Positions 3,430 through 61,632 of a stretch of DNA of 64,000 bases are shown piece after piece; the stretch's first letter is position 1, and each line of letters starts with the position of its first letter. A program made the translations under genes and the position numbers. The stretch is from assembly GCA_050084515.1 (NCBI GenBank), contig CM114271.1, forward strand, positions 45,942,001 to 46,006,000. Reading direction: 5' to 3'. The DNA comes from Blasia pusilla. Lineage: Eukaryota. Under the pieces are notes generated by a model. The model searched no databases, had not been told where the DNA came from, and saw only the letters and a list, made by a program, of their open reading frames with translations.

Positions 3430-4210
3430 TTACTATAACAAATGTCAAAAGAGGACAAAGAAAGATAATAATATTTCAAAAGAGGAGTCGGCAAAAAATG
3501 CATAATGAAATGTGAAAAGAAATGGCAACTACCCAATATAAATACCAACTCGACGAGTTCTACCATTGTTAACTTGAGACAAATCTAACAAGAACACTAG
3601 TGGTTAGTCAAAAGTGAACGGTCGCCTCGCCACTTCCGCACGACGTATCAATCTCAAAGCTTGTGCACGTCGTAAGGCCACTGAAATGCATTTCCGAAAA
3701 TAAATAGTGACTACGAAGAGAGAAGGACTACGCAAAGGGGCAAGGTGATGATTCTCGAGAGAGTGGTGAGCACATGTTTTCACGAAAGTATCAAAAGACA
3801 CATGTAAATTATCGAGTACTAGTGAAATGTCCGTGCCATGCACGGAAAATAAAAAAGTGTTTGAAGAGTTAATTATTGCTCGTAGCCCACACAAATTCAA
3901 ATTTCTTTTCTTGTTGCCCCTAGCATGTGAACTATTTTCTTGTTGTCCAATTGCCACTTGTCAAACATAGAGGAGTTTCCAAATCAAGAAGGCACTCTCC
4001 CATAATAATATAGATTTCCACTGCAAAACGAATGAATCCATCAGTCGCTTGTCTCACATCATAACTTAACTCCCTAACTCTTACTGCTACTTTGGTTGTC
4101 GAATCTTTGGTATGTGCGGCTTTACACACCAAGTCAAAACGTGTTCAATCAGCAACCACTACATCACCTAGTGTCCAGAATTCACCTTGAGACATAACAA
4201 GATCAACTAA
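3430..4210 (-). mobile_element. 3' fragment of CRE-like non-LTR retrotransposon (RLE domain and 3' UTR), split by a mini-Helitron
   Basis: Colinear with 8905-9500: the peptide TFVKTCAHHSLENHHLAP..ISVALRRAQAL and the shared 3' UTR motif AAAAGAGGAC..AAAGAGGAGTC. Confidence 0.85.
3819..4014 (-). mobile_element. Non-autonomous mini-Helitron
   Basis: On the minus strand it starts A|TCTATATTATTATGG and ends with a perfect hairpin CCGTGC-ATG-GCACGG (3831-3845), then 8 nt, then CTAG|T. Removing it restores the CRE sequence seen uninterrupted at ~9300-9320, with no TSD. Confidence 0.85.
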
Positions 4211-4290
4211 CTTAGCTATAAATTAAAAATTCATTGTGGATGTTATATTTTCCAATTAGTACTACCATGCTCAAAAAGGGAAATAAAATA

Positions 4291-4365
4291 TCTATCTTCT
4301 ATATTATTATTGGAGAGTGCCCTTTCATTCTTCAAACTCTTCTTCTCTTGACACTTGGAAGTCTC
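4291..4365 (+). mobile_element. Helitron 5' terminus of the same family as 3819-4014
   Basis: TCTATATTATTATTGGAGAGTGCC matches the 5' end of the 3819-4014 element in the opposite orientation. The 3' end was not located. Confidence 0.55.
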
Positions 4366-4895
4366 GGCCAATCGTATCACTCGCCTTCTGAGCCAATAGG
4401 ATCATTCGAAGTTGATTAAAAATGACGCTTCATAATTTTGAGTGCTACTTAACATTTTGGGAATTAGTTCAAACGGTGCATACCATCAGTGTACACTAGT
4501 ATGAATATATTTCTATTATGGGAGGTTACAATCCTAGAAGAAAAAATTATTGTTTTCCTCCTTTCAAAATATTTTAATATACATATCAAATCATCGTATA
4601 AGTAAATGGAATGATCCTTCTTCTCTTGACACTTGGAAGTCACGGCCAATCGTATCACTCGCCTTCTGAGCCAATAGGATCATTCGAAGTTGATTAAAAA
4701 TGACGCTTCGTAATTTTGAGAGCTACTTATCATTTTGGGAATTAGTTCTAACGGTGCATACCATCAGCGTACACTAGTATGAATATATTTCTATTATGTG
4801 AGGTTACAATCCTAGAAGAAAAAATTATTGTTTTCCTCCTTTCAAAATATTTTAATATACATATCAAATCATCGTATAAGTAAATGGAATGGTCC
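4340..4895. repeat. Tandem duplication, 2 x ~278 bp, near-identical
   Basis: TTCTCTTGACACTTGGAAGTC begins at 4343 and at 4621, and the two copies differ at only a few positions. Confidence 0.95.
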
Positions 4896-8904: not shown

Positions 8905-11900
8905 TATTATAAAATAAACCTCAAAAGAGGACGAAGAAAGGTAATAACATCTCCAAAGAGGAGTCAAAAAATGCATAGTGGAATGCAAAAAGAAAATGCC
9001 AACTGGCCAACGCAAACACCGACACAACGAGCTACACGATTGATAGCGTGAAACAAATATGACAAGAACACGAGTGGTTGGTCAGACGTGAATGGACGAC
9101 GAGGCGAGCGACCCCCCACCGCCTCCGCACGACGTATCAATGCCAAGGCTTGTGCACGTTGTAAGGCCACTGAGATGCATTGCCAAAAATAAGTGGTAAC
9201 TACATAGAGACAAGGACTACGGGAAGGGGCAAGGTAATGATTCTCGAGGGAGTGGTGAGCACATGTTTTCATGAAAGTATCAAAAAACACATCTGAATGA
9301 CCGAATACTTCCACTGCAAAAGGAATAAATCCATCAGTCACATGTCTCACAACATAACTTAACTCCTTGATTCTTGTTGCAGCTTCGACCGCCAAACCTT
9401 TGGTATGTTTGGCTCGACACACCAAGTCACAACGTGTTGGATTAGAAACCACCACATCACCTAGTGTCCGGAATCCACCTCGAGACATAACAAGATCCAC
9501 TCTCCGACAAGAGGTTGCTTGTGTGGTTGAAGGTAGGACATGGAGTTGCTCTTGCCCAACGGTGTATCCTGCAGTACGAGCCACCGATGCTACCGCCTCT
9601 CTAATGATATCATGTGTGGCCGTTCGTTCTTCAACATGAGCACATCAAAGAATATGGAGACCCTTCGCATCAATGGGATCCCCGCATACATAATTCGGCA
9701 CACCTAACAGAGAAGGATGTGGAAGTCCAAGGTGTAACCACAAAACTGTCGAGAATATACTTCGAGGAAGACGAAATGGAAGAATAAGAGGATTTGCAGT
9801 AAGCCACGCCCCAACTGCGGTACCCGCACATGAACCTAGACGAGGTCGATGAGCGTCAGAGGATGACTCAGAGAGAATGTTGGAAAACTTTATTTGATGC
9901 AGATTCTCGGAGATATGCTATTGAAGTCGATCAAGCCCTTCCGTAATCAATTGACTGAAAGGGGATAGAATTTCTTGTGAAGCAAAAGGAAGAAGAACTC
10001 GTGCACATCTCAGTTGTTGTTGAATAACACGTCACCCTCCTCTACATGGGCGACATGATCCATCCAGATAGGTGTATCTCCTTGGAGAAACCTTGAAGCC
10101 ATAATTGGTGCTACCAATACCCAACTCCCCAAAGAGGCTACGGGAGCAGATGCGATTGTAGAGGAAAGTCCCACCCCTTCAAAAGAAATAGGCAAGATAT
10201 CTTGTCGTGAAGACAAGACACCATCATCTCCCTCAAATGTATTCGGGCTAAGAAGTTGACCAAAAGTTGCCAAGATAGAAGTGTCAAAATAGGCCAACCG
10301 ATGTAAGAACCTTGAAGTGGGAGGACAACTGCAAAGAAGGTAGGAAGGACGTCGTAGAAAACATTGGGAGAGAATCCCATAAGCCACTTGGGAATCCCCT
10401 AGATGAGGTAACAAATGAAGCCATTCCACGTCTTTCAAAAGGGCCTCATCCAAGAACTTTGAGACATAGTCGATGAAGCCAATTGGGACCCCAATAACCC
10501 TAACCCCTTCAATGTAGATGGGAAAATCAGGAGTAGGTGGGTGAATTTTGAGGGAAGGCATGAAGGAGACCATACTCCACATTTACTAGGTTGGACTTTA
10601 AGGTTCAAGAAAGAGAGTTGCTCCACAAAATGGATATAAGCAGGAACCACTTCAGAAGGAGGACCTATAAAGTGAGTGTCATCAACAATAGAAGGGAAAA
10701 CACAAGATGGAAATGCTTGCGCTCATGCTCGAAAGGCACAAAAATGGGCAATGGCAAAATGTAGGGCGCCCATGGGATCACCTTGATGTGTGCCACATGC
10801 CGATTATAGGATACTATATTCCCCGGAGGTAGCATGATGAGAATAGATAATGGGAGTATCATAGGCATAGAAGGAGCAAACAAATGGAATGAGACAGGCA
10901 AGTTATTCTCTTGCACAACGTAACTCCTCAAAGATGGCCGCACGAGAAACTGAATTAAATGCGTTAGCCACATCGACTTAAATTGTTACACGCTTTGGAT
11001 GAATATCAAGAGTGGAGAGAATCCTATACACCACAGCCTCACAACCTCCAGGAGTTGCCACTCCAAATTGATGAGGAAATAAGTGGGCACTAAAGTGAGG
11101 ACAAAATTGCAAGCATAGGCATCGACTAACCAAGCGATATAAAACCTCTCCAATAGCCAAAGGGCAGACATCTAAAGGAGGCTTATCCATAGCCAACAAA
11201 TGACAAGCCCCTAAGAGCCTAGAGATAGAGAATGGGAGATGGCTTGTCGTAATATGTGCACACACCTTATATAGAGAGACAAAGCCACTTGTTGAATCTG
11301 CCGGGATAAAGCAATCAAGGAGATGCTCAAAAACCATCCCTGATAGTTTGCTTGCTAATAAGCGAGGATTATGAAGAAAAGCCCTTGTGAAAACCTCCAC
11401 GTCAAGCTCCAAGTCAAGGTCTCTTGTATAGTCTTCCACAAAAGGTGGAGCATCACCACTTAAAGAAGGGTGAAGAGCTTCTAATAGAGCCAATGTTTTC
11501 GCACTTGGAACTTCCAAAGAGAGAGGACCCAATGCTCATGTTGCACGTGAAAACTCACCAACGTGCCCCAAAAGTAGACTTCGTCAAAGGCGTTGTTGTA
11601 TTGAAGGCCTCCCATGATTGGCATGTTCAATGGGATGAGCCGCATGTAAGGCCTCTCCTCGAAGTACATGCTCATTCTGAAGATTATCCCAATCCCCAGA
11701 CATAAAGCGTTGAATGCGTGTGGAGGTTTCACGACGACCCGTCGCACCACCCCTTGGAGGGAGGACTAAAACCCAATGTGGGAAGAGTAATAGGAGATAC
11801 CAAGCATTGATATATGTGGGATCACGCGCTAACCTTTCTAATGGGAAAAGAAAATCTTGTTGGGTGATGGGGCGAAGAGCAATAGGAATGCGAGTGTAGA

Positions 11901-25899: not shown

Positions 25900-28649
<2,750 letters not shown>

Positions 28650-32740: not shown

Positions 32741-33065
32741 GGTTGGATTCTCAATATCCACTTCTATGAGCACCATTAATCTGATCGGCCCCCTTATATG
32801 AGGAGAAACCTAGATTGATGGTTCCGACTTAGCCGTTGAAGGAGTCATAGTAATATAACGTAGGTGGTTTATGGAGTAGGCTAGGTTATAAAAATAGGTT
32901 AAAAACCCTAGTTTCCCGAGTATTAAAATAGTCGAGAGCTGCAGCGGTAGCACATTCTTGTATGTCGAGTTATCTTCATGTTCAGGTTCCATCGAAGCTC
33001 TTCTGTGAGCGCACGGACGGACTAGGCCACTTTGTATCTTCAAGTTTTGTAAAGATTTCAGCAAC
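32741..33065 (+). mobile_element. Degenerate Copia-family LTR copy
   Basis: GTTGGATTCTCAATATCCACTTCT..TCCATCGAAGCTCTTCTGTGAGCGCACGGACGGACTAGGCCAC, homologous to 61198-61632 with an internal deletion. Confidence 0.85.
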
Positions 33066-38576: not shown

Positions 38577-39137
38577 TGTTGGATTCTAAACATCCACTTC
38601 TCATTGTGCATCATTGATCTGATCGGCCCTCTTATATGAGTAAGGTTGCACACGAACAAAGTTTGCGCCCGCGGACATGTCCATATCTGTCTGAGCCTAG
38701 ATACCCGCGGCCCACACTCGAGCTCGAGCCCGTCCCTGGAGCCTGTAGCGTGCACCTAAGTTGGTGGAGCCCACAGTGGTTTTGTGGCCTGGGACCAGCC
38801 CCGCATAGGGCCCACACATGGCACGCTCCGTGCCCATGCATGGCGAGCGGGCAAGCCCTCCATGTGTGGGCCCAACACGAGCCTAGCCATGAGCCACAAA
38901 ATCGGTGCATGCTCGGCCAGCATGGGTGCATGCTATGGGCTCGGCGAACCCACATAACGCATGTGCTGGGCTAGAGCCTGCCCAATAGGGGCCCAACCCG
39001 CCATGAGCAGGCGTGGCCACGGGCCACAAAATTGGTGCGGGCTCGGCCAGCCTGGGTGCACATATGTACTAGTCCATTTTATATCCTCAAGATTTGTAAT
39101 ATATCTGAGAATTATTTTCATAGCCTCTTTTCTCACA
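38577..39137 (+). mobile_element. 5' LTR of a Ty1/copia element, interrupted and internally deleted
   Basis: Starts TGTTGGATTCT and ends TTTTCTCACA, like 61198-61632. It is followed immediately by a PBS. Confidence 0.8.
38641..39052. mobile_element. GC-rich hAT-type non-autonomous fragment inside the Copia LTR
   Basis: TAAGGTTGCACACG.. is reverse-complement homologous to 6270-6364. Confidence 0.75.
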
Positions 39138-39147
39138 TGGTATCAAA
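39138..39147 (+). promoter_or_regulatory. Primer binding site, tRNA-iMet type
   Basis: TGGTATCA directly follows the LTR terminal CA. Confidence 0.8.
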
Positions 39148-39209
39148 ATGGTCAATTTTCTAGTATTTTGTATGTGGCGATCTAGTATGTTTGCATAAAT
39201 GCTTGAGAG

Positions 39210-40014
39210 ATGACTACTTCTTTGTTAGTTTGTGCTCATCCTTCTCCGCTAGGAGAAGGAAAGTTAGATGGGTATAACTATACATTGTGGAAGTTCAAAA
39301 TGAGAAATTTCCTCAATTATCTGGCATGGAATATTTTGAAGAATCGATATGAAATTAGGGACGAGACTCAAATTCAAAATTTGGAGAATCAACTTGCGTC
39401 CAAGAAATTTACAGAAGGATAAAGTGAGGAGCAATCTTTTACAAGGATCAAGAATCTTCAAGATTATATGACATCGGTAAGAATTTCAAAGCCTAGCAAA
39501 AATTTGGCACGTTGGTGCATAAAGTTTTTTCCTCCAAGATATGAAATTTTGGTCACAACTTTAAATACTCAAGTAAGACCTATACTGCTAAATTTTGAAC
39601 AATTTAGCGCAATGTTGGTTGAAGAGGAAATGCACTTCAAAGCAAGAGAGGGAAATGATGCCGCATTTATTGTCCACATAGAGAAAGATAGAAATCAAGA
39701 TTATAACTCAAATATCAAAAAGAAATTTCCAAAGAAAGCCTTCAAATGCTTCTATTATGGTGAAATAAGTTATCTTATCAAAGATTGTAGAAAGAGGAGT
39801 CAAGATGAGAAGGACGAGTATTTAAGACCTAGGAAGGAGTCTAGAAATTCTTTAGAACTAGAAGAACAGGAGATAGATGCTTAGATAGAAATCAAAGAGT
39901 TTTGCAAACAAGCTGAAAACCCCACCAAGTCAAAGAGTGAAGATGCATTGGTGCTCGATAGCGCAGCATCGGGACACATGATCACTCAGAAGGACTAGTA
40001 TAGCTCTTATCACA
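39210..40014 (+). pseudogene. Ty1/copia gag-protease pseudogene
   Basis: KLDGYNYTLWKFKM, PPRYEILVTTL, a decayed Zn knuckle CFYYGEISYLIKDC and protease VLDSAASGHM. It probably resumes at ~46520 (GIQGFHPIGRG) after the gypsy insertion. Confidence 0.85.
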
Positions 40015-40399
40015 TCTTTTAGGATAGATCTGTGAGATCTAGTAGAGTGCCTTGCAAGTAGTGGAGAATAGGCTCAGGAGGTTGAGAATGACATGTTGAG
40101 GCCCTGGGAAACCTGAGAGAGCAGATTTCTCCTTTGTTTCGGCTCATTTGGAGCCATATTGAGGAAGTTATTATTTGTAGGTAAGTACAATTTTGAGTAT
40201 ATGGTCAACTTTCTATTTTTGGTAAGTGGCCCTTGACCTCCTACATCAGGTCAAAAGCCAAGGAGGTGACTTGGGAGCATAGGTTACCATGGAAAGAGCT
40301 TGGGAGAAGGGAGGGGTATACCTCAAGGAGAGAGCTTGAAAGCTCATTCTCTCTTTGTTGAACCTCTTGGCATGAGGCGGCAAAACTATGGTCTTGCCC
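40015..40399 (+). repeat. 5' LTR of the gypsy element, 3' part deleted
   Basis: TTTTAGGATAGATC..GGTCTTGC is colinear with 45875-46220. Confidence 0.85.
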
Positions 40400-40989
40400 A
40401 GACAGAGGTCGCCGTAGTTGTGACGCGTGGAGTAATCGTAGAGTTGGATCCATAGCGAGGGGAAGCTAGGAAACAGACCAGGCTTCCTCAGTCTTTCATG
40501 TTGTCCAAGGCGATGAGGACCCCATCGATGGGTCCTGATCAGAGTTCTCGGAGAGTTGGTGATGTTATTGGTATGCAAGCACGGAGGAAAATGTGAGAAA
40601 TGCGTGCGACGACTCCTATTGTTGATGCTCAGGAGGAGCATGTATCGAGTACGATGTTGGGGGCGGCCACGATGGTTTACTATGCTCCACTATTTTCTAC
40701 TTCCGATGTTATGACATTGGGAGGTACGCCCGCCGAGGTGTTCCGACTAGCCGCTACGCTATGTGAGCGTGGAGTTGGAGTTCCTGCATCATGTTTAGAG
40801 GTGATTGCAGTGGAGGTGATGGACCTGCCCTTGGAGTATATGCTCGGGCCGTCCACGTCAGATTCATGGCAGGCTGCGGATGCTAGGATGGCAGAGATAC
40901 CCGCTAGAGCCGCGATAGAGCGTGCCATGGCTTTTCCTGGTGTTGTGTTGCTAGATAATTGAGGAGAGGTCTTCCAATTGGTGAGTCCC

Positions 40990-41320
40990 GGAGGTAGAGC
41001 TTTTAATCCGCAATGCGTCTTGTTGGATTCAGGAGCGCAACCCCTAATGTTGGGGAAAGCGTCATTCAGAGGATTGGGCTTGACGAGAGCCGATATGGAG
41101 TGTTGTTCATTCCGGATACAGACTTCCTTGGGTGGAGCAAGTATCACCTAATATATCACCCGACATGAGGTTGTGGTGAGGATTCGCCTGCGATATCCTA
41201 CAAATGAGTCCATGGTGCGAGCCAAGGCGATAGTGACTAATGCATGGTCCTACGACGTCTTGGTTGGTGGAGCAATGTTATACCCGATGGGGTTGTCCCT
41301 GGATTACTGGGAGGAGTCAA
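40990..41320 (+). pseudogene. Retroviral-type aspartic protease
   Basis: VLLDSGAQPLMLGK (Asp codon 41026-41028), IQTSLGG and YDVLVGGAML. Confidence 0.85.
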
Positions 41321-41739
41321 CGTCCTAAAGACCAAGATGGCAGTCAGGTGATGGGCACCTTAGCTCATTACCCGTTTGATTCACAAGTGCAGTGATCGAG
41401 CAACGACCAGGAGAGATGGAGACCTTAGCAACATTTTGCAATGCCATCACTTGGCCTAGTGATTTGATTAAGGGATATGTCCATGCAGAGGATACTCCCA
41501 TTCTTGAAATTTCTATGGAGAGGAGTGTTATGGTAGCCGCATGAGTCTGTGGAGGAGAGGTGCCGCTTTACGGCTTGACTGAGGAGCTTCGACGCTTAGC
41601 CATTGAGCATGTGCAAACCGCGTGGAGCGAGACATTTGCACAAGAGTATGACAGATCAAAGGAACCCCATGTAGGCAAGAGTGCCGCTATGACCCCTTTG
41701 GACACCACCCCCATTGAGTGGTGCATCCCAAAGGAGGGT

Positions 41740-42658
41740 ATTGGGGTGTTGGATCTTTTTGGAGGGATCAACACTAGGTTAGCTGCTGTTTTGCATGCTA
41801 GAGTGCGCATGTAGTAGTACTTGTATGTGTAGATTGATGATGTTGCGAGGCGCGCTTCACTTTACCATGTGGCGCAGTTACGCCTATGTTTTCCCAACTT
41901 ATTGTCTACGTCCGCCATTCAGGGTTACCAAAGTTCCCTACTGAGAGACATTTCATCGGTGGGGGAGCACGACTTGGAGCGGGTAGGGACCATAGACTTG
42001 GTCATTTCTCATTGGCCAAGTTAGGGCCAGTAGAGTGCTAACGGGGTAGCAGTTTAGCTGACTCTTGGTCGAGGTTGCTTTTGGAGATGATGCAGATCTT
42101 CCGACACTTGCAGGAACATCGTCCTCTAGCATACATTCTGTAGAATGTACCAATTTTGGGCGATTGGAGGTCCCGTGTGGTGACGAGTGCACATCATGTG
42201 TGTGCATGGATCGGCCCAAAAGTTTTGTTGGATGCGGCGAGTGTGGGTTCACGAGCACATTGCCTGCGTCTTTGATGGACCATTTGGTAACACACGAGAT
42301 GTTGCGGAGGGCATATGTGAGAGTGGAGCGCCCCTCTAATTTGTTGGTGGATTCTATATTGGATCCGGGCCGTCGATCACGCGCAGTGAGGCACGATGAT
42401 CGATCTCCGTTGACTATGGTCAACAGGATTGGCATGCCACGGGCAACCTTTCCCATATTGGTGATTTTTCCCGCTTCCTATGCATTCAAGGAGGCCGGAT
42501 CTGGCTTGGTTTGGGATGACCAGGTACAGAGGTTGGTGGAGCCCAACGCCGATGAGCAAGAGCGAGCAATGGGATTCCCCATTGGAGTGACCGTAGTATC
42601 GTCACTATCAGAGGCATCACGACGTCATGTCTTGGGTCAGGCGATGGATCTGAACTGA
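41740..42658 (+). pseudogene. DNMT3-like C5 cytosine methyltransferase domain within gypsy pol
   Basis: Motif I VLDLFGGI (41746-41769, same frame as the protease). II YLYV*ID. IV IDLVISHWPS*G (41992-42027). V LADSWSRLLLEM. VI YIL*NVP (42132-42152). VIII DAASVGSRAHCLRL*WT (42231-42281). IX-X EQERAMGFPIGVT..RRHVLGQAMD (~42554-42649). Confidence 0.85.
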
Positions 42659-43149
42659 TTGACATGGATTTTCAGCTTAGGAGTAGCCGAGCAACGTTGT
42701 TTGAGGATGCGACAGATCACAATAGTTGCGTTGGTGAGCCCCATGCTTACCGAGATGGTTGAGGCAGTGGCTAGGGGCGAGACCCGAGGAGATCGACACA
42801 CCAAGGGTGATTGGGAGGGACACCCTTGGACTTCTTGGGATGTTTTCACGTATGCTAGGAGATGGTAGCCACAACATTGAGCGTGGTTCCAGGTACTGCA
42901 AATGGAGATCCGATTTTGCAGTTGGCTGGAGGGGAACAATTGAGTTTTGTTGTTTGAGATGGGGTTGCACCATAGCAACCACCGACACCCGCATTGGAGA
43001 GTCCTACCATGGTCACGATGGAGACTTGGGAGCCAGATATGGGCCCTAAGTTGACAGGAGAAGAGCGGCGCCAGATAAAATAGTTCCTTAGGAGTTATAG
43101 GAGTTGTTTTGTATTTAGCATGCATGATTTGGATACGTTGAAGGATCAC

Positions 43150-44225
43150 GGATCTGCATTGAGTTATCGAGTGACACGCCAATCTTTCGAAGACCCTACA
43201 AGTACAATGATTTGGAGAGGGATAGGATTCAGAGTAGGAGCCAAGACTTGGTCAGAGCAGGACTAGTGGAGATGTCCTATGGGCAATATGCGTCTACCAC
43301 TCTCATGCCCGCCTAGAAGGATGTGCATGGCAATTGGACGGATAGGTGGATGTGTGGAGATTACCAACCTATCAATTGGTGGACAAAGTCCGATATGTAT
43401 GCCATGCCCACCCTTGAGGCAATTTGATGTGATTGGGCATGCAAAGGTATTCAGTTCATTGGATTTGCGAGCCGGATACCATCAGCTGCCTATAAGATTG
43501 GAGGATAGGCAGAAGACGACATTTTGGGGCATCGATCCTCACGGGAAGTATTGTCTGTACCAGTGGCGGTTCTTACCATTCGGGTCATGGATAGGATCTT
43601 GGCAGGTCTGGATTTTGCTAGATGTTATATTGATGTCATCGTAGTCTTTAGCGCCACGGTTGAGGAGCATGAGCAACATCTAGATGAGGTGTTTTGACGA
43701 TTGCACTTACATGGGGTGAAGCTACATCCAAGCAAGTTCAAGTTCTTCTACGACCAGATTGAGTACTTAGGTCATACGATACACCCATGGGGCCTTGGTG
43801 TGCAGCTGATGAAGGTAGAGGCTATTTCACTCATTCCACGCCCTACAGATTTGAGCCGAGTCCCTGCATTCATGGGATTGGAGAACTTCTATCCACAATA
43901 CGTCAAGGGTTTCACCTCGATTTTGAAGCCACTGATCTTGCTGACCAAGGTGGATCAGGAGTGGCATTGGGGGGATGAGCAAGAGAGTATAGCTCGTATG
44001 AGGGTGAGTGCTTGGATGCAGTGTGGGTTGTCGTACATTTCAGATGTTATCTATTCGGCAATCCCTTTACCATCATTATTGATCATTAGCCACTTAAGTG
44101 GTTGATGGAGTCCGACAAGCTCACAGGGAAGTTTGCAAGGTGGGCTCTTTTGTTGCAGGAGTATGACTTCCAGGTGGTGCATAGACCTGAGATGCTCAAC
44201 CAGGATGCAGATGGTTTGAGCCATA
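43150..44225 (+). pseudogene. Gypsy reverse transcriptase and RNase H (with deletions)
   Basis: RWMCGDYQPIN, FSSLDLRAGYHQL, YQWRFLPFG, CYID, IEYLGHTI, YEGECL and ARWALLLQEYDF..DADGLS. Confidence 0.95.
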
Positions 44226-44439
44226 ACTCATGCCCGAGTTAGCGAGATGCGAGTGGAGCTTGTTGGCATGGTGAGAGTGATGAGGAGTCGGTGCCACGAT
44301 GGCATGAGTTAGCCTTTTTGGGCTTGTTGGCTATGGAGAGCCAGATTGTTGAGACTTTGATGGCGAGGTCTGATGGAGAGTCCTTAGATCCAGAGGCCGG
44401 TGAGGAGACGATAGGTGATCGAGACATTCACGACGATGA

Positions 44440-45420
44440 AGTTCAATAGTTTGTTGTGAGATGTATGGTGTGTGATCGAATCCGAGCATCGTTCAATGCT
44501 CTCTAACTCCACAGTTGCATCCCCTTGTGATCATAGGTTTAGGTTATAGATAGAGTTTGGATTTTGCAGGACCTTTGCCTTTGACGGAGCGCCATAGTCG
44601 TTATGTGTAGGTGATGGTCGAGCACTTCTCAAAGTGGATAGAGTTGGTTGCATTGCCTGACAAAGCGAGTGAGGGAGTAGCGTATGCCTTCCTAGATCAA
44701 GTGCTGAGTCATCACGGTGCACCAGTTGAGGTGTTGATACACCAGGGTACAGAGCTTCATGGGGAGTTTCACGCCTTGTGTGATGAGGCACTGATCGACC
44801 ACCGCACCACTTCGCGAGATCATCTTGAGGCGGAAGGACTAGCAGAGAGGGTTGTGCAGACGGTGAAGATAGGATTATGCAAGTATGGCTTGTAGAGAGG
44901 TCATCTAGGATATTGGGACCTTCAGTTGGCGTGGTTGGCGATGGGATACAAATTCAGCAGGCAGACATCTTAGCGTCTTTCTCACCGTACTTGCTGCTTT
45001 ACGGCCGTGAGCTAGATTTACCTGCAACCCTTCGTGGAGATGTTGGTGAGATGTTGAACCTTGATGACCCTGATGTATGGATGAGAGCATGTTCATAAAG
45101 GGTTGAGTTGTTCCGGAGAGTGATGCCCATGACATTTGAGAACTTGGCGATTGCGCAACATCGAGACACATTGAGGTATGTGACTATTCAAGGTGTGATT
45201 ATCGACCTACTATCCGGAGGTTTCATCAAGGAGACTATGTCTACTTGGTGAGACAATACCCATGACATTGGATGTGACTACACGGTTCACCATCTTGAGA
45301 ATGCGTGAGGTTTTGCCATCACATGTTCTCTTATTGGACGGACGTGATGGTATGGTTTGGAAAGACTATGTGCGTAACTGTGGGCCGTGTCACCTTCCAA
45401 ACATTGACGGTAAAATTTAT
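44440..45420 (+). pseudogene. Gypsy DDE integrase
   Basis: CMVCDR, LDFAGPLP, VEHFSKWIE, HQGTE and EGLAERVVQTVK. Confidence 0.9.
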
Positions 45421-45453
45421 CCGAGCTTAGCAGTAGTTCTTGTAGGCTTGCGA

Positions 45454-45588
45454 TGTATGTTGTGTGGTTATGGCCGTGGTGCAGCCACTATGCTAGTCTG
45501 TGATGGATGTTCGAGAGGATGGCATATGGCATGTTTGACGCCACCTCTCACTAGGGTTCCTCAGGGAGGATGAATATGTCCCATATGT
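45454..45588 (+). pseudogene. PHD finger (C4HC3) at the integrase C-terminus
   Basis: CMLC..[32 protein letters not shown]. All eight ligands are present, and the conserved Trp position is a TGA. Confidence 0.9.
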
Positions 45589-45874
45589 ACAAAGAGTAGA
45601 TAGTTCTACATTCCGACTTATGTCTGTGATATGGATGAAAAGAAGGCGATTAATGATGGGGCCACATGAGCAACCGACCTTCTTGCTCTTAGCGTCCTAG
45701 AGATGTATGTCATGGTAGGTAGGAATAGATGGCTATCTGGAGTTAGAGGGACCTAACCATCAGCTAAGGGCGATTGGAGATATTTTGGTACTTCTTGTCT
45801 TATTTTTTGGATGCCATGAGTTAGCATGGGATAGGGCGTGTTTTGTGTGTGTGTTCGGTGACAACGATGTTTGT

Positions 45875-46475
45875 TGTTTTAGGATAGATCGGTGAGATCT
45901 AGTAGAGCGCCTTTGCGAGTTGTGGAGGATAGGCTTATGAGGTCGAAAATGACCTTCGTTTCGATTCATTTGGAGCCATATTGAAAAACTTACTATTTTA
46001 AGTAAGTACCATTTTGAGTATATGGTCGAATTTGAATTTTTGGTAAGTGGTCCTTGACCTCCTACATCAGGTCAAGAGCCAAGGAGGTGACTTGGGAGCA
46101 TAGGTTACCATAGACAGAGCTTGGGAGAGGGGAGGGGAATTCCTCAAGGAGAGATAGTTTGAGAGCTCATTCTCTCTTTGTTGAACCTCTTGGCATGAAG
46201 AGGCCAAGCTATGGTCTTGCTTGCCTTGTGTGTGTAACTGAAGACTCTCATTAGGAGAGTGGGTTTGGTTTGACATTGAGAGAGATATGTGAGAGTGCAC
46301 ACATTTGAGAGCCATGGTGTTGAGAGAGATTGGATCTCGATTTAATTGGAGATATTTTGGTACTTCTTGTCTCGTTGTTTGGATGCCATGAGTTGGCATG
46401 GGATCGTGCGTGTTTGTGTGTGTGTTCTGTAACACCGATGTATGTTGTGTAGCGATGTGTATGCGCACCACACTC
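45875..46475 (+). repeat. 3' LTR of the gypsy element
   Basis: Starts TGTTTTAGGATAG and is homologous to 40015-40399 and to the solo LTR at 54856-55501. Confidence 0.85.
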
Positions 46476-48078
46476 GTGACAGCCTATGCAGGAGCCCATC
46501 GTCGTCGGGCGTTGTCGCATGGAATACAAGGTTTCCATCCAATTGGAAGAGGTCACGAAGAAGTAGATTTCAATTTTGGATAAGGTAAAATCACAAATGG
46601 AGAGACAAAACAAGACGCTATGAGCGCTCATGGATATGGTATCTAAAGTCACTTCACTTGACATACATGGTGCATCCAAGCCAATTTTCAATAGTCTAGT
46701 TGTAGAGTCAACTCCATCCTCTGATGGAGATCCTAAATCAGGTAAGCTACTCTTATGGTTTTCTTTGTGCCATTGGGAATTCTTGGGTGGATGTTCTTTG
46801 AATGTAGTACATAACTCTTACATAGGAAACATGGTCTTCTACTCTAACTATGACTATGAAATAACACAAAATATCATGAACATCATTCAAACCACGTGTC
46901 TTCATACTTTCAAACTTTGTCATACATGTGCTATGCTACTAAATTTGGAATTATATGTAATGGATGCAAGAAAAGACAAGATTGACTCTCCTCCGATTTC
47001 TAATGCAGAAGAATGGTTAGGACTAAAGGCATGGGTTCAGCTCATAGTGATGATGATCAAGGCACTACATACTCCACACTTAAGGAGTTCAATCAAGGTT
47101 GCACGGATACGAACAAGTCCAGATATGACCACGGACATGGAAAACCGATCGTAAGCCCAATTTCTTTGGCGCTCTTGTCGACCGTGTGGGCTTAGATGAA
47201 GGGTGCGGGCTAAAGGCAAGCCACATACGCGACGTGGGCTAAGGGTGGGCTCCCTCACGTGCCTAGCGGGTTGGGAGAGGGCCTAGGGCGGGCCATGCAT
47301 GCTCAGTGGGGGCACCCGCGCGGGCTTGTGGGCTAAGGTGGGTTGAAGGCGGGCAGAGAGCGCGCCAAGTGCGGGCCTGGCGCGGTGGGGGGCGGGCCAT
47401 GCACAAGCTTGCAGGCCTAGTGGGCTGCGTACGGGCCAGACGGGCTAGAGACGGGCTTGGTGTGGGCCTCCTGTGGGTCGAGGGCGGGCTAGGGGGCAGG
47501 CCTATCACGGGATTGGCGTGCTACGTACGAGTGGAGGGCAGGTTGGGGGGCGGGCCAAGGGCGGGATGGGGGTTGGGCTTGTAGGCCTATCGCGGGCCTA
47601 GCAGTATGGGGGTTGGCCTGGCAGGCCGAGGGCGGGCCTGGTGCGGGATGGGGGGCAGGCCAAGCGCAAGCTTGTGGACCGAGGGCGGGCTAGGCGCACG
47701 CTTGCAGGTTAACAACCCACCCGTGAGTAGGGTTATTGTAGTAGAGAATATGTTAGTTAGAAATGAGATTAATTGAAAAAATGGGGATAGTATAGGTGGA
47801 GATAGGAAGGAGAAGGTTAAAATAGAATTGAATGGGGCGATTGTATTGGAAAATAGGTTAGTTGGAAATAAAAGTAGGTAAAGAAGTTAGGATAGATGAA
47901 AAAGGAATCGGATATGAACAAAAAAGTACATTTGCTAAATGCTAATTAATGGAAATGGTTTAGTAATAAATTGTAAGTGGAGGGGATAGACGATTTGGGG
48001 AGTTAGAAGGGTTCATTCTCTTCCTTCCATCCTCCCCTATATAAACTTGCTCATTTTTATATACCCTCACAATCTCAT

Positions 48079-53141
<5,063 letters not shown>

Positions 53142-53499: not shown

Positions 53500-56290
53500 A
53501 ACATCGGGAAGAAGTACAAATGGAAGGTGGAACATCAAGCAAATGACAATGTAAGTTTTATTTCTATTGTATGAAAACCTATCATAGCACAGAGATGATG
53601 GAGCATTTTACACGAGAGAGACAAAAGACAAAGGATGGGAATCATAGTATCCATCATGCCAAATTATATGTGAAGGTCTTTCCTAGTGTGCAACGGGATT
53701 TCCGAAATAGGGAACTTGTGGGAAACGGAAAAAGAAGGGAAGCGAGACCCTCGAGTGAAGTGGAGGAGACAACGCCATTACAAATAGGTTCGCAACAGAC
53801 ATGACATAGTATTTATGTTATGTCAAATATTAGTGGGGTTGCGGACATACCACCGTGTGACAGTCTCGAGGAATGAAGAGGAGTTGTTGGGCCTATTCAA
53901 GGGACTAGTAGTTTTGGGAAGAAGCAAGCCAATCTGAGGGATTCTTTCAACACGCACGGAATAGAAGTTACAAATGACATGTGGGCAAAGTGTTTCTACG
54001 AATGTGGAATACCATTCAATATAGTAAGGCAAGATGCTTTCAAACATACTGTGTTGGAAATAAAAAAAGGGTTTCTCAGGTCCTAGTTACAATTCGTTGC
54101 TCACCATCCCACTTGAGAAACATATGGAGAAGGTGAAGGAAAAGGTAGATGACATATTGGATAATTTGTATTTGGGGGCCACGATCATCACGGATTCTTG
54201 GACCAATGTGAGGAGTGAGTCTTTAGTGAACATCATGGTCTCGTGTCCACAAGGTCAGATCATGAATGAAGCATACATAGCAACTTGAGTATTGTTTAAC
54301 GGACATACACACATTTCATCATACACCTACACCAGATCCATAGGTGATATTGAAGTCACTTTACAAAGGAAAAAGGGGAAAGGTGTAGTTATAAATATCC
54401 ACATTGAGATCTGAGACGAGTAGCTAGAAAAGCCCTACTCTGCCAATGAGTAGAAGCACAGTAAGGTGCAAATTATCATGTGCATCGGTCCAAAGAATGT
54501 GTTGCAACTTGTTACAGTCATTGCTAGCAATGAGCAAGCACTAGGAAAACTTATTGTAGCAAAGTTTCCTCATATTATTTGGGATGGATGCGTATCAAAT
54601 TCTTTTGATCTAGTGTGCAAAGAGCGGGGTAAATGGCCTTGGATGGACATGATTTTTGCACAAACTCGTGAGATGGTAGTATTTGTGAGGACTAGAACTT
54701 GGGTGATGGCCAAATTCATGGAAACCAATCCAATAAAGAGACAATTTTTGTTTCATATAAACACACGTTTTGCCAAAAACTTTATCATGTTGGGACGTGT
54801 CTAAGAGTTGAGGGAGGCATTCCATACTGTGGTTACCACAAATGCTTTTAGGATGTGTTTTAATGGGAGGGATGCGAGGTGTAGTGCGCATACATGTCGC
54901 AACACAATATACATCGTTGTCACCAAACATACACACAAACACGCACAATCCCATGCTAACTAATGACATCCAAACATCAAGACAATAAATACCAAAATAT
55001 CTCTAATAAATCACGTGGATATCTCCATCACAAGGTCTCACAACTCTCTCTCTCTCTCTTATGTCAAACCAAACCCACTCTACTAATGAGAATCTTGGGT
55101 TATGCACACAAGGCAAAGAGGACCATAACTCCGTCGCCTCATGCCAAGAGGTTCAACAAAGAAGAATGAGCTCTCAAGCTCTCTCTCTTTGAGGCATACC
55201 ACCTTTCCTCTCCCAAGCTCTCTCCACGGTAACCTATGCTCGTAGGTCATCTCCTCAACTCTTAACCTACTGTACGTAGTGGGGCAAGGGTCACTTTCTA
55301 TAGTGGAAAGTCAAATATACCAAAAACAAAAACTTACCCAAAATAGTAAATTACTCAATATGGCTCCAAATGAACCGAAACGAAGGGGAAATGTGCTCTC
55401 TGAGATTATCCAAGCCCTCAACCAATCATCCTCGACCTTCTAAGGCTCTCCTCCGGTATCTCCAAAGGCTCTCTACTATATCTCATCTATCTATCCTAAC
55501 AAATGTGATAGGGGCAAAGGGAGAAGGTATGAGAGATTGAGACTATTGTGGCCAATCACGATTTTTGGATAGAAGGTGAGGAGTTATTTGCTGCGGCTTT
55601 TCCAACTATTATTCTATTGAGAGAGTGTGATGGTCATAAAGAAATGATGAGGCATATTTATCGCCGTATATTTGAGATAATATAAGAGACTAGTGCTTTT
55701 CCTGTAATTCCATGGCCCGGTATGGGTGGAAGGCGTCATGGCTTTTTCTAACAATGTCCAAAGCTATAGAAATGGTTTGTGTTATTTCTCGACGGTGGGC
55801 AATTATCCACAATAAGTAATATGCAATAGGCTACATTCTCGCCCCTTATAATCTTATTGATAGTGTTCAAGATGTCACTTCAAATGCTGAAAGCATGAGA
55901 GATTTCAAACAATATCTGAAACTTTATGCAAAGGGGGTGTATGGCCTCAATGTCATCGAGGCTAATTCTTATGTTGATACTTGTTTCCGAGAGTTGGGCA
56001 ACATTGTGAACCATCAGGAACTATTTGTGGATGAGTTTGACAGGGAAGTTGTCTATTCACTTGGCCCCTCTAATTGGTGGAGCATGCATGGTGAAGGTGC
56101 ACCAACATTGGGATCTGTGGCTAAGTCCATATTACCACAAGTAGTTGCTTCTTCTTCAGTGGAGAGAATTGAAGTAGTTATGGTTTATCCACAACAAGGA
56201 TAGGAATAAATTGACAACAAGCATACCGGGGATTTGGTGTACATATACACAAAAACTCAAGGTTTTGAGACAAGGGTGTTTCTCGGAAAT
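53500..56290 (+). pseudogene. hAT transposase pseudogene (DUF659-type core and C-terminal dimerisation domain)
   Basis: CFYECGIPFN, TIITDSWTN, IGPKNVLQLVT, IIWDGCVSNSFDL, TRFAKNF and NWWSMHGEGAPTLGSVAKSILPQVVASSSVER. Confidence 0.92.
54856..55501 (-). mobile_element. Solo LTR of the DNMT-gypsy family inserted in the hAT transposase
   Basis: The reverse complement starts TGTTAGGATAG and ends AAAACA, colinear with 45875-46475. Flanks GATG/AATG. Transposase coding sequence continues on both sides. Confidence 0.88.
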
Positions 56291-56961: not shown

Positions 56962-57408
56962 TGTTGGATTCTCAACATCCACTTCTCTAAGCACCATTAA
57001 TCTGATGGGCCACCTTGTATGACGAGAAGCCTAGATTGATGGTTCCGACTTAGACGTCAAAGGAGTCATAATAATCTGATGTAGGTGGTTTTAGGAGTAG
57101 CGCTACTAGGTTTATCTAACCCTATATTGCATCACCCGCACCCTGATGCGTCGCGGGGGTCCGACGGCGCAACCTCTGGCAAAAAAATTTCTATTAATAG
57201 AAAAAAAGAAAATTAGGTAAAAGCCCTAGTTTTCCTGAGTAGTCAAATAGTCGGGAGCCGCAGCGGTAGCGCATTCTCGTATATCGAGTTATCTCCATGT
57301 TCAAGTTCCATCGAAGCTCTTCTATGAGCGCACGGACGGACTAGGCCAATTTGTATCTCTAAGTTTTGCAAAGATTTCAGTGATTTCGTCACTTTCTATT
57401 TTCTCGCA
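56962..57408 (+). mobile_element. Copia-family solo LTR
   Basis: TGTTGG..TTCTCGCA with 5-bp TSD CAACC/TAACC. Confidence 0.92.
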
Positions 57409-57639: not shown

Positions 57640-59705
57640 CATGGAACAAGATAAAAAATGGACAAGATGAAAAATTAAAAGACCGGGTTATCAATTTTTG
57701 AGCTTTTGGTCACAACTTCATTTTGCTTGAAACCTCACAATATAACTACATGCATATTTGAGATCATATGGACCAAATTTTATTTCTAGATGAGATCCTT
57801 AGACAAGATGGAAAATGAAAAGACCTTCTTTTCATTGAAGGTTTAGGCGCGGGTCAAAAAATGATCTAGCAACTTTGGGCTTTTGATCAAAACTCCATTT
57901 TTCTTGAAACTTTGCGAGATAGGTAAATGTGACTTGGGAATCATGGGTACCGAATTTCAACTCAAGATGAGATACTTGGAAAAGATGGAAAATGAAAAGA
58001 CCTTATTTTCATTGAAGGTTTAATGGAACAGGTTAAGAATTTGTAAGCTTTTGGCCACAACTTCACTTTCATTGAAAATTTTCAATACAAAAACATGCAC
58101 CTTGGGGATCATGTTAACCAAAGTTCACCTCTAGATGAGATACTAGGACAAGATGGAAAATGAAAAGATATTCTTATCATTGAAGGTTTAGGTGCTGGTC
58201 ACAAAATGACTTTGCAAATTTTAAGCTTTGGGTCACAACTCCATTTTGATGGAAACTTTGCAAGATAGCTACATGTATCTTGGGGATCATATAAACCAAA
58301 TTCAACTCAAGATGAGATACTTGGACAAGATGGAAAATCAGAAGATCTTCTTTTAATTGAAGGTTTAATGGCGCATGTTCAAAAAATGAGTTAAAAAATT
58401 TCGAGCTTTTGGTCATAATTATATTGTAATTGAAATTTTGCAAGACATCTTCATGCACCTTGGGGATTATGTTTACCAAAGTTGAGCTCTAGATAAGATA
58501 GTTAGAGAAGATGGAAATTGAGAAGTCCTTCTTTTCATGGAAGGTTTAATGGCCATGGTGTAAAAAATGAGTTAAGAATTTTTGAGCTTTTGGTCTAAAC
58601 TCCATTTTTCTTGAAAATTTTCAAGAGAGCTACATCCACCTTGGGGATCATGTGTACCAAACTTAAACTCTTAGTAAGATAGTTTGACAAGATAGAAAAT
58701 GAAAATATCTTATTTTCATTGAAGGTTTAATGGCGCGGGTTCAAGAAATGAGTTAAGAGTTTTTGAGTTTTTGAGCTTTTGAGCTTTTGGTCATAATTCC
58801 ATTTTAATTGAAACATTGTGAGATAGCTATATGCACCTTGGGGATCATGTGTACCAAAGTTTAGCTCTAGATGAGATACGTGGACAAGATGGAAAGTGAA
58901 AGGCCTTCTTTTCATTAAAAGTTTAGGCGCGAGTCAAAAAATGACTTAGGAATTTTTTAGCTTTCGGTCACAACTCCTTTTTGTTGAAACTTTGCAAGAT
59001 AGCTGCATGTACCTTAGGGATCATGTGTACCAAATTTCAACTCAAGCTGATGTGAGAAAACAGAATGTGACTAAATCATTGAAATATGTCATAAATTTTG
59101 ATACAAAGTGGCCTAGTCAGTCCGCGCTCACAAAAGAGTTTCGATGGAACTTGAATATGGAGATAACTTGACACACTAGAATGCGCTACGGCTCCGACTT
59201 TCGACTATTTTAGTTCTCGGGAAACTAGCGTTCTTTTCTTATATTTCTTCCTTTTTATTTATAGATTTTTTTTGCAAGAGAGCTACATGCATCTTGGGGA
59301 TTATGTGTACCAAAGTTCAGCTCTAGATGAAATACTTGGATAAGATGAAAAATGAAAAGATCCCATTTTCATTGAAGATTTAATGACACGTGTTAGAAAT
59401 CACAATGGTCACAAATCCATTTTGATGGAAACTTTTCCAGAGAGCAACATACACCATACGGATGAAGTGTACCAAAGTTCACGTCAAGATAAGATAGTTG
59501 GACAAGATGAAAAATGAAAAGAACCCATTTTCATTGAAGGTTTAAGGGCACATGTCAAAAAATGAGTTTACAATTTTTGAGCGTTTGGTCACAACTCCAT
59601 TTTCTTGAAACTTTGAAAGGGAGCTAAATCCAGGAGAACGATGTGTACCAAAATTCAACTCTAGATGAGATACTAGGAAAAGATGAAAAATAAAAAGACC
59701 TTATG
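57640..59705. repeat. Degenerate tandem repeat array, ~170-190-bp unit, ~10 copies
   Basis: GACAAGATGGAAAATGAAAAGA-like anchors recur at ~57661, 57802, 57980, 58147, 58324, 58506, 58686, 58883, 59340, 59501 and 59679. Confidence 0.92.
59051..59275 (-). mobile_element. Truncated Copia-family LTR inside the tandem array
   Basis: TGTGAGAAAACAGAA..GGCCTAGTCAGTCCGCGCTCACA is the reverse complement of the LTR 3' half. Confidence 0.85.
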
Positions 59706-61197: not shown

Positions 61198-61632
61198 TGT
61201 TGGATTCTCAACATCCACTTCTCTAAGCACCATGAATTTGATCGGCCCCCTTGTATGAGGAGAAGCCTAGATTGATGGTTCCGACTTAAACGTCGAAGGA
61301 GTCATAGTAATATGACGTAGGTGGTTTGAGGAATAGCGTTACTAGGTTTATCTAACCCTATATTGCATCAGGGTACCCCGCACCCTGACGCGTCGCGGAG
61401 GTCCGAGGTGCGCAGCACCTAGTATGCCAAGAAAAATAGGTAAAAACCCTAGTTTTCCCGAGTAGTCAAATAGTCGGGAGCCGCAGGGGTAGCGCATTCT
61501 CGTATGTCGAGTTATCTCCATGTTCAAGTTCCATCGAAGCTCTTCTGTGAGCGCACGGACGGACTAGGCCACTTTGTATCTCTAAGTTTTTGTAAAGATT
61601 TCAATGATTTCGTCCCTTTCTGTTTTCTCACA
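61198..61632 (+). mobile_element. Copia-family solo LTR, 435 bp
   Basis: TG..CA termini with a perfect 5-bp TSD TTTAA/TTTAA. Confidence 0.95.

Follow-up and report, generated by a model that had tools for sequence, protein, structure and literature searches.

A dead Ty3/gypsy retrotransposon of Blasia pusilla retains the remnant of a DNMT3-like cytosine methyltransferase that is very probably native to its lineage

The DNA analyzed here, 64,000 nucleotides of the Blasia pusilla contig CM114271.1 (positions 45,942,001 to 46,006,000; hereafter, the window), contains at 40008-46472 what, judged from its sequence, is an old, dead Ty3/gypsy long terminal repeat (LTR) retrotransposon with the order protease, DNA methyltransferase (DNMT), reverse transcriptase (RT), RNase H, integrase, and PHD finger. 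It is very probably a dead copy from a lineage that natively encodes a DNMT3-like enzyme between the protease and the RT, along with a PHD finger after the integrase. This kind of element is already known (KnitGypsy-Dnmt3, 2018); added here are relatives in land plants whose motifs are intact, a pair of layouts that follow the DNMT tree, the terminal PHD finger, and a conserved, probably leaky stop codon.

The methyltransferase remnant lies on the plus strand and comprises the following segments, which we take to correspond to the named motifs I to X of C5 methyltransferases (asterisks mark stops):

41698..42697, plus strand: decayed DNMT3-like C5 cytosine methyltransferase, motifs I to X in order, in frames +1, +3, and +2 (tblastn with the proteins P0001 and P0211)
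41746-41769, frame +1: motif VLDLFGGI
41830: stop in YLYV*IDD, replacing the motif II acidic residue of the relatives
42019: Ser in DLVISHWPS*G, at the position of the catalytic Cys of the relatives, with a stop at 42022
42141: stop in YIL*NV, after a frame change, at the ENV Glu site of the relatives
42273: stop in SRAHCLRL*WT
42560-42655: ERAMGFPIG...LGQAMDLN, after the second frame change, with a stop following at 42656

Homology of this region to intact proteins was established by searches that span the breaks. A word-indexed search with the first window piece, in which stops were read as X, yielded 592 candidates, the single longer protein among them being P0001 (E = 2e-33, 46% identity, 94% coverage), whose 90% cluster includes proteins named at NCBI as Sphagnum jensenii and S. 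troendelagicum, in which PCQ, ENV, motif VIII, and motif IX-X are intact. In the reverse direction, tblastn with P0001 found three collinear pieces in the window, in frames +1 (E = 1e-44), +3 (E = 4e-21), and +2 (E = 3e-21). The best-matching relative is Mp_4g09160 of Marchantia polymorpha (P0211; 1278 aa, consisting of gag, protease, and C5 methyltransferase). Its residues 435-977 align to 40396-42030 in frame +1 (44% identity over 559 columns, E = 3e-111), residues 983-1063 to 42045-42281 in frame +3, and residues 1064-1243 to 42281-42844 in frame +2 (54% identity), the identity across the three pieces being 44-57%. These pieces contain 11, 2, and 1 in-frame stops, respectively (about 14 in total), and are separated by two frame changes, near 42030-42045 and at 42281; the stops within the DNMT remnant itself are at 41812, 41815, 41830, 42022, 42141, 42273, and 42656. 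Over the whole interior of the element, the match to P0221 requires about nine frame switches.

The initial annotation, made from the sequence alone, had listed these motifs, and translation and tblastn found all of them, from VLDLFGGI to LGQAMDLN, in their places and broken as described; the frameshift-spanning alignment it called for produced the collinear pieces in frames +1, +3, and +2. Motifs I, IV, VI, VIII, IX, and X keep their order, the catalytic Cys reads Ser, and the ENV Glu reads stop, so that, together with the other stops and the two frame changes, the description of this copy as dead was borne out. Its span of 41740-42658 captured the domain but was slightly too narrow, the true extent being approximately 41698-42697 within an open reading frame (ORF) 1 remnant at 40396-42972. 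The proposed membership in PF00145 was found in the aligned relatives (P0001, 29.3 bits; P0211, 35.6 bits; ORF1 of the metagenome locus L030, 51.1 bits; cut-off, 22) rather than in the pieces of the window, and the cut-off is also passed by P0016, P0018, P0033, P0221, and L028. As read from its letters, the window copy is a pseudogene of a PF00145 member that would make no enzyme.

For the question of which METHYLTRANSFERASE, the Sphagnum protein P0002 and a profile of 17 relatives were searched against solved structures. With P0002 alone, the 29 best distinct solved sequences were DNMT3A, DNMT3B, and DNMT3C (E = 2e-9 to 7e-5), followed by DRM, DNMT2, and M.HhaI. With the profile, the 29 best distinct sequences were again all DNMT3A/B/C (E = 2e-24 to 3e-18), ahead of DRM (5e-12 to 2e-9), M.HhaI (3e-8), and DNMT2 (3e-3), and no DNMT1 chain appeared among the solved structures at E <= 0.01. 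An AlphaFold model of P0002, built from 46 sequences, had a mean predicted local distance difference test (pLDDT) score of 78.8, with values above 90 over most of residues 100-430. In a Foldseek comparison of this model, every row down to rank 49 among the matches listed was DNMT3A/B/C (best E = 8.8e-18), with template modeling scores (TM-scores) on the target of 0.42-0.84, and of 0.77-0.84 for isolated catalytic-domain chains. Both the profile and the predicted fold place the element domain closest, among solved enzyme families, to DNMT3, as had been proposed, and the motifs run from I to X without the circular permutation that the annotation had likewise denied. In the 46 relatives, which are 26-44% identical to P0002 outside its close kin, the catalytic Cys (C195) and the ENV Glu (E238) are invariant, whereas R278 and R280 of motif VIII and E376-E378 (Glu-Arg-Glu) of motif IX are at least 90% conserved. 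Animal DNMT3s have PWWP or ADD domains as companions; neither was listed by Pfam in P0033, P0211, P0221, L028, or L030. Protist and algal DNMT3s are likewise described without companion domains in the part of PMC12344493 that treats them.

The methyltransferase is embedded in the same polyprotein context in intact relatives. A full HMMER scan with P0002 retrieved 2313 clusters at E <= 1e-3, of which 237 reached E <= 1e-30; long polyproteins were frequent among them. In P0033 (2188 aa), Pfam identified a zinc knuckle, protease, DNA_methylase, RVT_1, RT_RNaseH, and integrase; P0221 (2358 aa) encodes, in one frame, Asp_protease_2, DNA_methylase, RVT_1, RT_RNaseH, Integrase_H2C2, rve, and PHD, which is the order of the window. 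In the metagenome loci L002, L005, L016, L028, and L030, protease, DNMT, RT, RNase H, and integrase share one reading frame, and L028 and L030 have open frames. By tblastn, collinearity between the window and the Marchantia and Sphagnum polyproteins begins upstream of the protease and continues across the DNMT into the RT and integrase. Because the intact relatives share this domain order in open frames (P0033, P0221, L028, and L030), the methyltransferase appears native to the element, as the annotation had concluded, and not a one-off insertion.

Two layouts were distinguished among the 109 stored related proteins of at least 1000 aa. In type A (34 of the 109), the DNMT lies beside the protease or ahead of the RT, as in the window, and in type B (the other 75), it lies between RNase H and integrase; Pfam places it there in P0026 and P0040 (RT, RNase H, DNA_methylase, integrase and, in part, PHD). 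Type B (RT-RNase H-DNMT-integrase-PHD; P0026, P0040, P0137, P0236, and P0250) is the commoner layout and forms a DNMT clade of its own. On these sequences, the DNMT domain seems to have either moved within the polyprotein or been taken up twice.

DNMT trees were built from segments of 260 residues or more, after removal of those with an identity of at least 85% to one already retained, with the breaks of the window read as X. The FastTree of 152 rows contained a group of 44 that holds the window (28 type A, 16 untyped) and a group of 107 (85 type B, 22 untyped), with the type A protein P0252 on a long branch outside both; support for the main A/B split was weak (73 and 59). A first set of architecture labels gave many apparent layout changes on this tree and was replaced by stricter labels, with which the split is clean; it was upheld on a subset of 64 rows analyzed with IQ-TREE (LG+G4, quick mode). 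This subset comprised 27 typed type A proteins and the window, 4 untyped proteins, and 32 of the 85 type B proteins drawn at random, with P0252 and the other untyped rows excluded, and the Shimodaira-Hasegawa-like approximate likelihood ratio test (SH-aLRT) supported the A/B split at 100% on both sides. The sister group of the window (100%) consists of P0189 from Calypogeia, P0211 and P0242 from Marchantia, P0002 from Sphagnum, and the unnamed P0193. The named close relatives of the window element are from Marchantia, Sphagnum, and Calypogeia, and the named type B relatives are from the green algae Chromochloris zofingiensis (P0137), Haematococcus lacustris (P0236), and Cymbomonas tetramitiformis (P0250). 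As a separate observation, Sphagnum P0002 is 66-69% identical to Marchantia P0211, P0218, and P0219 over nearly the whole 501-residue query, and the tree branches are short; this closeness of moss and liverwort sequences, high for such old lineages, could reflect slow change or transfer between hosts.

The remaining parts of the element, identified by three-frame Pfam scans of 40399-45900, by tblastn with the related polyproteins, and, for the LTRs, by their repeat matches, and a solo LTR of the same family, are as follows:

40008..40397, plus strand: 5' LTR remnant (LTR part A only), 87-89% identical to 45877-46220
40396..41358, plus strand: gag-protease linker and aspartic protease in frame +1, with the LLDSGAQ active site near 41020-41040; corresponds to residues 435-745 of P0211
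41359..41697, plus strand: conserved protease-methyltransferase linker with stops at 41377 and 41542; aligns to P0001, P0002, and P0211
42698..42972, plus strand: C-terminal tail of ORF1 past the methyltransferase; aligns to P0211 up to 42844
42973..42981, plus strand: conserved in-frame stop, TAG CAA CCA, at the ORF1/ORF2 boundary; probable leaky stop
43042..43988, plus strand: reverse transcriptase, frames +1 and +3 (Pfam RVT_1 and polyprotein tblastn)
43973..44296, plus strand: Ty3/gypsy-type RNase H (tblastn; Pfam RT_RNaseH on 43973-44164, 58.2 bits, cut-off 24.8)
44450..45256, plus strand: integrase (zinc-binding part and DDE core), several frames
45454..45588, plus strand: PHD finger at the C-terminal end of the integrase ORF (Pfam PHD, 31.7 bits, cut-off 24)
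45773..45877, plus strand: repeat B1, a 105-base copy of the LTR 3' end directly 5' of the 3' LTR, 89.5% identical to 46345-46448
45877..46472, plus strand: 3' LTR (A, middle part, and B2), matching the 5' remnant and a third copy at 54875-55510
54875..55510, minus strand: solo LTR of the same family, 78% identical to 45953-46476 and 40008-40379

RVT_1, the Ty3/gypsy-type RT_RNaseH, and rve occur in that order between flanking LTRs, in agreement with the gypsy assignment of the initial annotation, which did not mention the PHD finger; the latter is found at the same place in P0221, P0026, L028, and L030. RVT_1 scored 38.4 bits on 43572-43781 (cut-off, 29.6) and, below the cut-off, 22.4 bits on 43435-43707; rve scored 28.4 bits on 44560-44814, below its cut-off of 32.6. 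The integrase is 74% identical to that of Sphagnum fallax P0251 over 135 residues. Pfam assigned no protease family on the window at E <= 0.1; the protease segment, with stops at 40453, 40594, 40960, 41149, and 41326, also aligns to the proteases of P0033 and P0221. The protease-DNMT linker is modeled in P0002 mostly with low confidence, with two predicted helices.

Homology to P0211 begins at residue 435, at 40396, right where the 5' repeat ends, so this copy has lost the rest of the LTR as well as the primer-binding region and gag, with the zinc knuckles that P0211 retains. Interpretation of the short 5' repeat as one half of a DIRS-like split repeat was considered and rejected, since a deletion of the LTR end, primer site, and gag better explains the start at residue 435. 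In the family reads, the LTR begins with TG and ends with CA, and the joints of LTR end to LTR start and of the interior into B are covered by hundreds of family DNA reads and some RNA reads, derived from other copies. The 3' end thus reads B-A-B, because B1 precedes the 3' LTR and the family reads share that junction; the arrangement is not general, given that the Sphagnum-like locus L026 shows, at the sensitivity used, only plain LTRs of 342 bases. The 4-base flanks, compared as candidate target-site duplications, match at only 3 of 4 positions both for the element and for the solo LTR, and tblastn with the polyproteins found no element proteins beside the latter.

In 18 related loci and the window, a stop codon lies between the DNMT and the RT. 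L030 consists of a 1369-aa ORF1 (protease and DNMT), a TAG, and, in the same frame, a 1047-aa ORF2 (RT to PHD), and L028 is organized alike. A search of 80 loci and the window for the conserved peptide GPxLT, located at the start of ORF2, gave 21 matches. In 19 of these (the window and 18 loci), the first stop met upstream is 22-29 codons away from the peptide; the other two, L032 and L064, are unrelated and lack the stop context. The stop is TAG in 14 loci and the window and TAA in 4 loci, and it is followed by CAA CCC (14 loci), CAA CCA (L016 and the window), CAA TCA (L028), or CAG TTA (L029 and L030). Because the flanking peptides differ strongly between groups, the stop can be regarded as conserved across about four lineages. 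The position agrees with the ends of ORF1 in relatives, 79-130 residues beyond the DNMT block: 21 stored protease-DNMT proteins end 6-478 residues past the block, 16 of them within 69-143, and both Marchantia P0211 and P0218 end at 79. Given this conserved in-frame TAG ahead of the RT, the DNMT ends the gag-protease ORF; the placement "inside pol" in the initial annotation therefore holds for the position between protease and RT but not for the interior of pol. UAG CAR YYA is the type I readthrough motif of plant viruses, as far as the consulted portion of 10.1101/2024.02.08.579442 goes, and the boundary stop is probably leaky, as its conservation and context suggest. In the Marchantia gene models P0219 and P0242, the DNMT tail is joined to the RT and the stretch with the conserved stop is skipped as a predicted intron. 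Such models may be counted as host DNMT genes, and models like Mp_4g09160 can raise the apparent number of "host" DNMT genes when species are compared.

The state of the family in the host was assessed by placing on the element, at a likeness of at least 85%, reads of one genomic run (about 1% of it) and of three RNA runs. The 97163 genomic reads gave a summed depth of approximately 1400-2600 over most of the element; only 186 of them are at least 99% alike to the window copy, and 64643 are under 90%. The RNA runs contributed 4163-4837 reads each, with a 10- to 100-fold excess of first mates on the minus strand, which means, if the libraries are of the usual stranded kind, that the element RNA is the plus (sense) strand; depth was 60-190 over RT to PHD and 6-19, about ten-fold lower, over the DNMT core. 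Read depth and RNA reads together indicate that the family is abundant and transcribed. The window copy is about a tenth diverged from the bulk of the family, and the transcription seen is at the level of the family. Among 845 variable places listed, in a listing that stops before the DNMT region, the window has A/T against G/C in the family at 399 and the reverse at 165. The observed/expected ratio is 0.64 for CpG and 1.25 for TG+CA, and the A/T excess and CpG loss fit decay by deamination of methylated cytosines.

Several observations weigh against a native, functional methyltransferase, and alternative explanations were considered. On their own, the three frame pieces of the window match no Pfam family even at E <= 10, pieces 1 and 2 match no solved structure by phmmer, and piece 3 hits only motif IX-X of DNMT3A at a marginal E of 0.09. 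These results are what would be expected if the motifs were a chance resemblance in protease-RT junk that never encoded a methyltransferase. The pieces are, however, unrecognized because the copy is too broken, so that relatives are needed, and the tblastn matches to PF00145-bearing proteins (E down to 1e-44 with P0001 and 3e-111 with P0211), collinear over about 800 residues, leave chance a practically negligible place. A single insertion of a host DNMT3 gene or pseudogene into the window copy, in a family otherwise devoid of methyltransferases, would account for the genomic depth over the DNMT core (41736-42386), which is just 410-780 compared with about 2000 alongside, that is, two- to five-fold below the neighboring parts; many copies of the family may lack the core, or the core may be more diverged in the window copy. 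Yet the core is still covered several hundred-fold, the protease-DNMT-RT order recurs in distant relatives with open frames as well as in gene models of Marchantia and Sphagnum, and the window DNMT groups with element-borne DNMTs at 100% SH-aLRT, making such an insertion very improbable. The open DNMT frames described here are those of relatives, and with only 0-4 RNA reads per run at least 99% alike to the window copy, the RNA comes from other copies.

It could also be that the domain is native but has lost catalysis in the lineage, persisting as a pseudo-enzyme whose role is to bind DNA or chromatin. In yeast, no methylation was obtained with the KnitGypsy-Dnmt3 domain, in a test that its authors call inconclusive in the relevant section of PMC5890265, and we found no enzymatic activity in print for a gypsy-type DNMT. 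The invariance of the Cys and the ENV Glu and the strong retention of motifs VIII and IX across the 46 relatives are instead the pattern expected from selection on catalysis, and we regard the pseudo-enzyme as improbable, albeit less so than the insertion. The case for readthrough has its own weak points: it is deduced solely from conservation and context; the 14 Sphagnum-like loci are close kin and therefore count as one, leaving about four independent lineages; the second codon past the stop is CCC rather than YYA in these 14 loci; and neither P0221 nor P0033 has any stop separating DNMT and RT.

With a native DNMT3-like enzyme as the preferred reading, the working of live relatives can be outlined. 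The genomic RNA would likely be translated into a gag-protease-DNMT protein that ends at the conserved UAG, and occasional readthrough in the CAR YYA context would extend it by RT, RNase H, integrase, and PHD. In that case, the methyltransferase would be produced in an excess like that of gag and could accompany the particle, where it might methylate cytosines on the new element complementary DNA (cDNA) or at the landing site, a hypothesis of de Mendoza et al. (2018) that we adopt tentatively. Chromoviruses are gypsy elements with a chromodomain after the integrase. Like them, the present elements bear a chromatin reader at the integrase C-terminus, although here it is a PHD finger, which, in an equally tentative parallel, might steer integration by reading histone tails. 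Instead of targeting its own cDNA, the enzyme might act in trans on the host genome or mimic host gene-body methylation to escape silencing. The gag-level dose implied by its position in ORF1 would suit action in trans too, but Klebsormidium nitens has, per the pertinent text of PMC5890265, a land-plant-like methylome despite its elements; we consider this alternative rather unlikely, though a serious one. At its most extended, the scenario is of one old PHD-finger gypsy lineage across green plants with a working DNMT3-like enzyme, located at the RNase H-integrase site in green algae and after the protease in bryophytes and the window host, still transcribed at high copy in at least one host, in which the bryophyte-type enzyme would end the gag-protease before a programmed leaky UAG, be packaged in bulk, and methylate its own cDNA. 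Taken as a whole, this scenario is speculative and would more probably fail in some part than hold throughout. If true, it would amount to de novo methylation run by a transposon, which could be tested in Marchantia, a model liverwort.

Cytosine methylation is the main tool of the host against transposons, so that a transposon with its own de novo methyltransferase is a paradox. So far, a gypsy-borne DNMT has been documented in one charophyte alga, without shown activity; the intact catalytic motifs in gene models of Marchantia polymorpha, Sphagnum, and Calypogeia provide tractable systems for the role of the enzyme. The documented case, KnitGypsy-Dnmt3, has a Dnmt3-related domain in the Pol ORF of a Klebsormidium nitens gypsy element, under purifying selection (de Mendoza et al. 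2018, PMC5890265; this and the following comparisons draw on the sections of the cited papers that treat the elements). It resembles the present elements in having a non-permuted DNMT3-related domain with conserved key residues in a gypsy coding region. Its repeats are called DIRS-like and spelled out in the legends as A-coding-B-A-B, comparable to the B-A-B at the 3' end of the window element, whose 5' end is truncated. It differs in that the paper reports it from one charophyte, whereas the present relatives, likened to it by description, are from liverworts, mosses, and green algae, and the sections devoted to it state no position of the DNMT within Pol, no PHD finger, and no leaky stop. 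None of the named proteins retrieved here bore the name Klebsormidium.

Among other retrotransposon-borne C5 methyltransferases, SymbioDIRS-Dnmt3 and SymbioLINE-Dnmt of dinoflagellates, the former of which methylates CG de novo in yeast (PMC5890265), have DIRS and LINE backbones, with a tyrosine recombinase or an endonuclease in place of the DDE integrase, and belong to another host lineage. The retrotransposons carrying Dam-like adenine methyltransferases and the "EpiLTRs" (10.64898/2026.05.21.726589) are also LTR elements with DNA methyltransferases and chromatin readers, but carry an adenine methyltransferase or a DNMT4-related cytosine enzyme and are set apart from Gypsy-DNMT3 in the portion of that preprint seen. 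Cellular DNMT3A, DNMT3B, and DNMT3C share with the element domain the best profile and fold match, the motif order, and a similarly short stretch between motifs VIII and IX; they differ in sequence (about 20-23% identity in structural alignments), and the element domain has no PWWP or ADD by Pfam and is embedded in a gag-protease ORF. Plant DRM, second-best among the solved structures, has circularly permuted motifs (PMC5890265), unlike the element.

Later papers, including PMC12344493 in its relevant passage, cite the type as "streptophytes (Gypsy-DNMT3)". Literature searches for the element type in land plants (bryophytes, Marchantia, Sphagnum, the gene identifier, and the PHD finger), which covered neither supplements nor subscription journals, yielded only PMC5890265 and papers citing it, and the accessible text of PMC9033089 and PMC11982613 contained nothing relevant to bryophyte elements. 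The supplementary trees of PMC5890265 or PMC12344493 may already include bryophyte copies.

The surroundings of the element are rich in other repeats. Directly 5' of it, at 39207-39884 on the plus strand, lies a copia-type gag (Retrotran_gag_2, 28.1 bits against a cut-off of 27) that is AT-rich, has a zinc knuckle, and contains one stop; insertion of the DNMT element into a copia element is possible. An ORF past the element, at 46624-47154, matched no family. The copia/DNMT-element region is flanked by GC-rich low-complexity sequence (38600-39150 and 47260-47700), and long GA/CT microsatellites are also present (48067-48200 and 28400-28600). Remains of non-LTR retrotransposons are present at 26993-27766 on the minus strand and at 49882-50328 and 51492-52079 on the plus strand, with RVT_1 matches of 77.2 and 50.9 bits and a weak endonuclease match. 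Two tandem arrays, at 57668-59562 and 4339-4894, are built, respectively, from a unit of about 177 bases, present in up to nine copies that are 61-78% alike, and a unit of 278 bases, present in two copies that are 97% alike. Other dispersed repeats, 83-96% alike, pair 3625-4208 with 9114-9501 and link 32741-33048, 56962-57367, and 61198-61590; these are probably LTRs of other elements.

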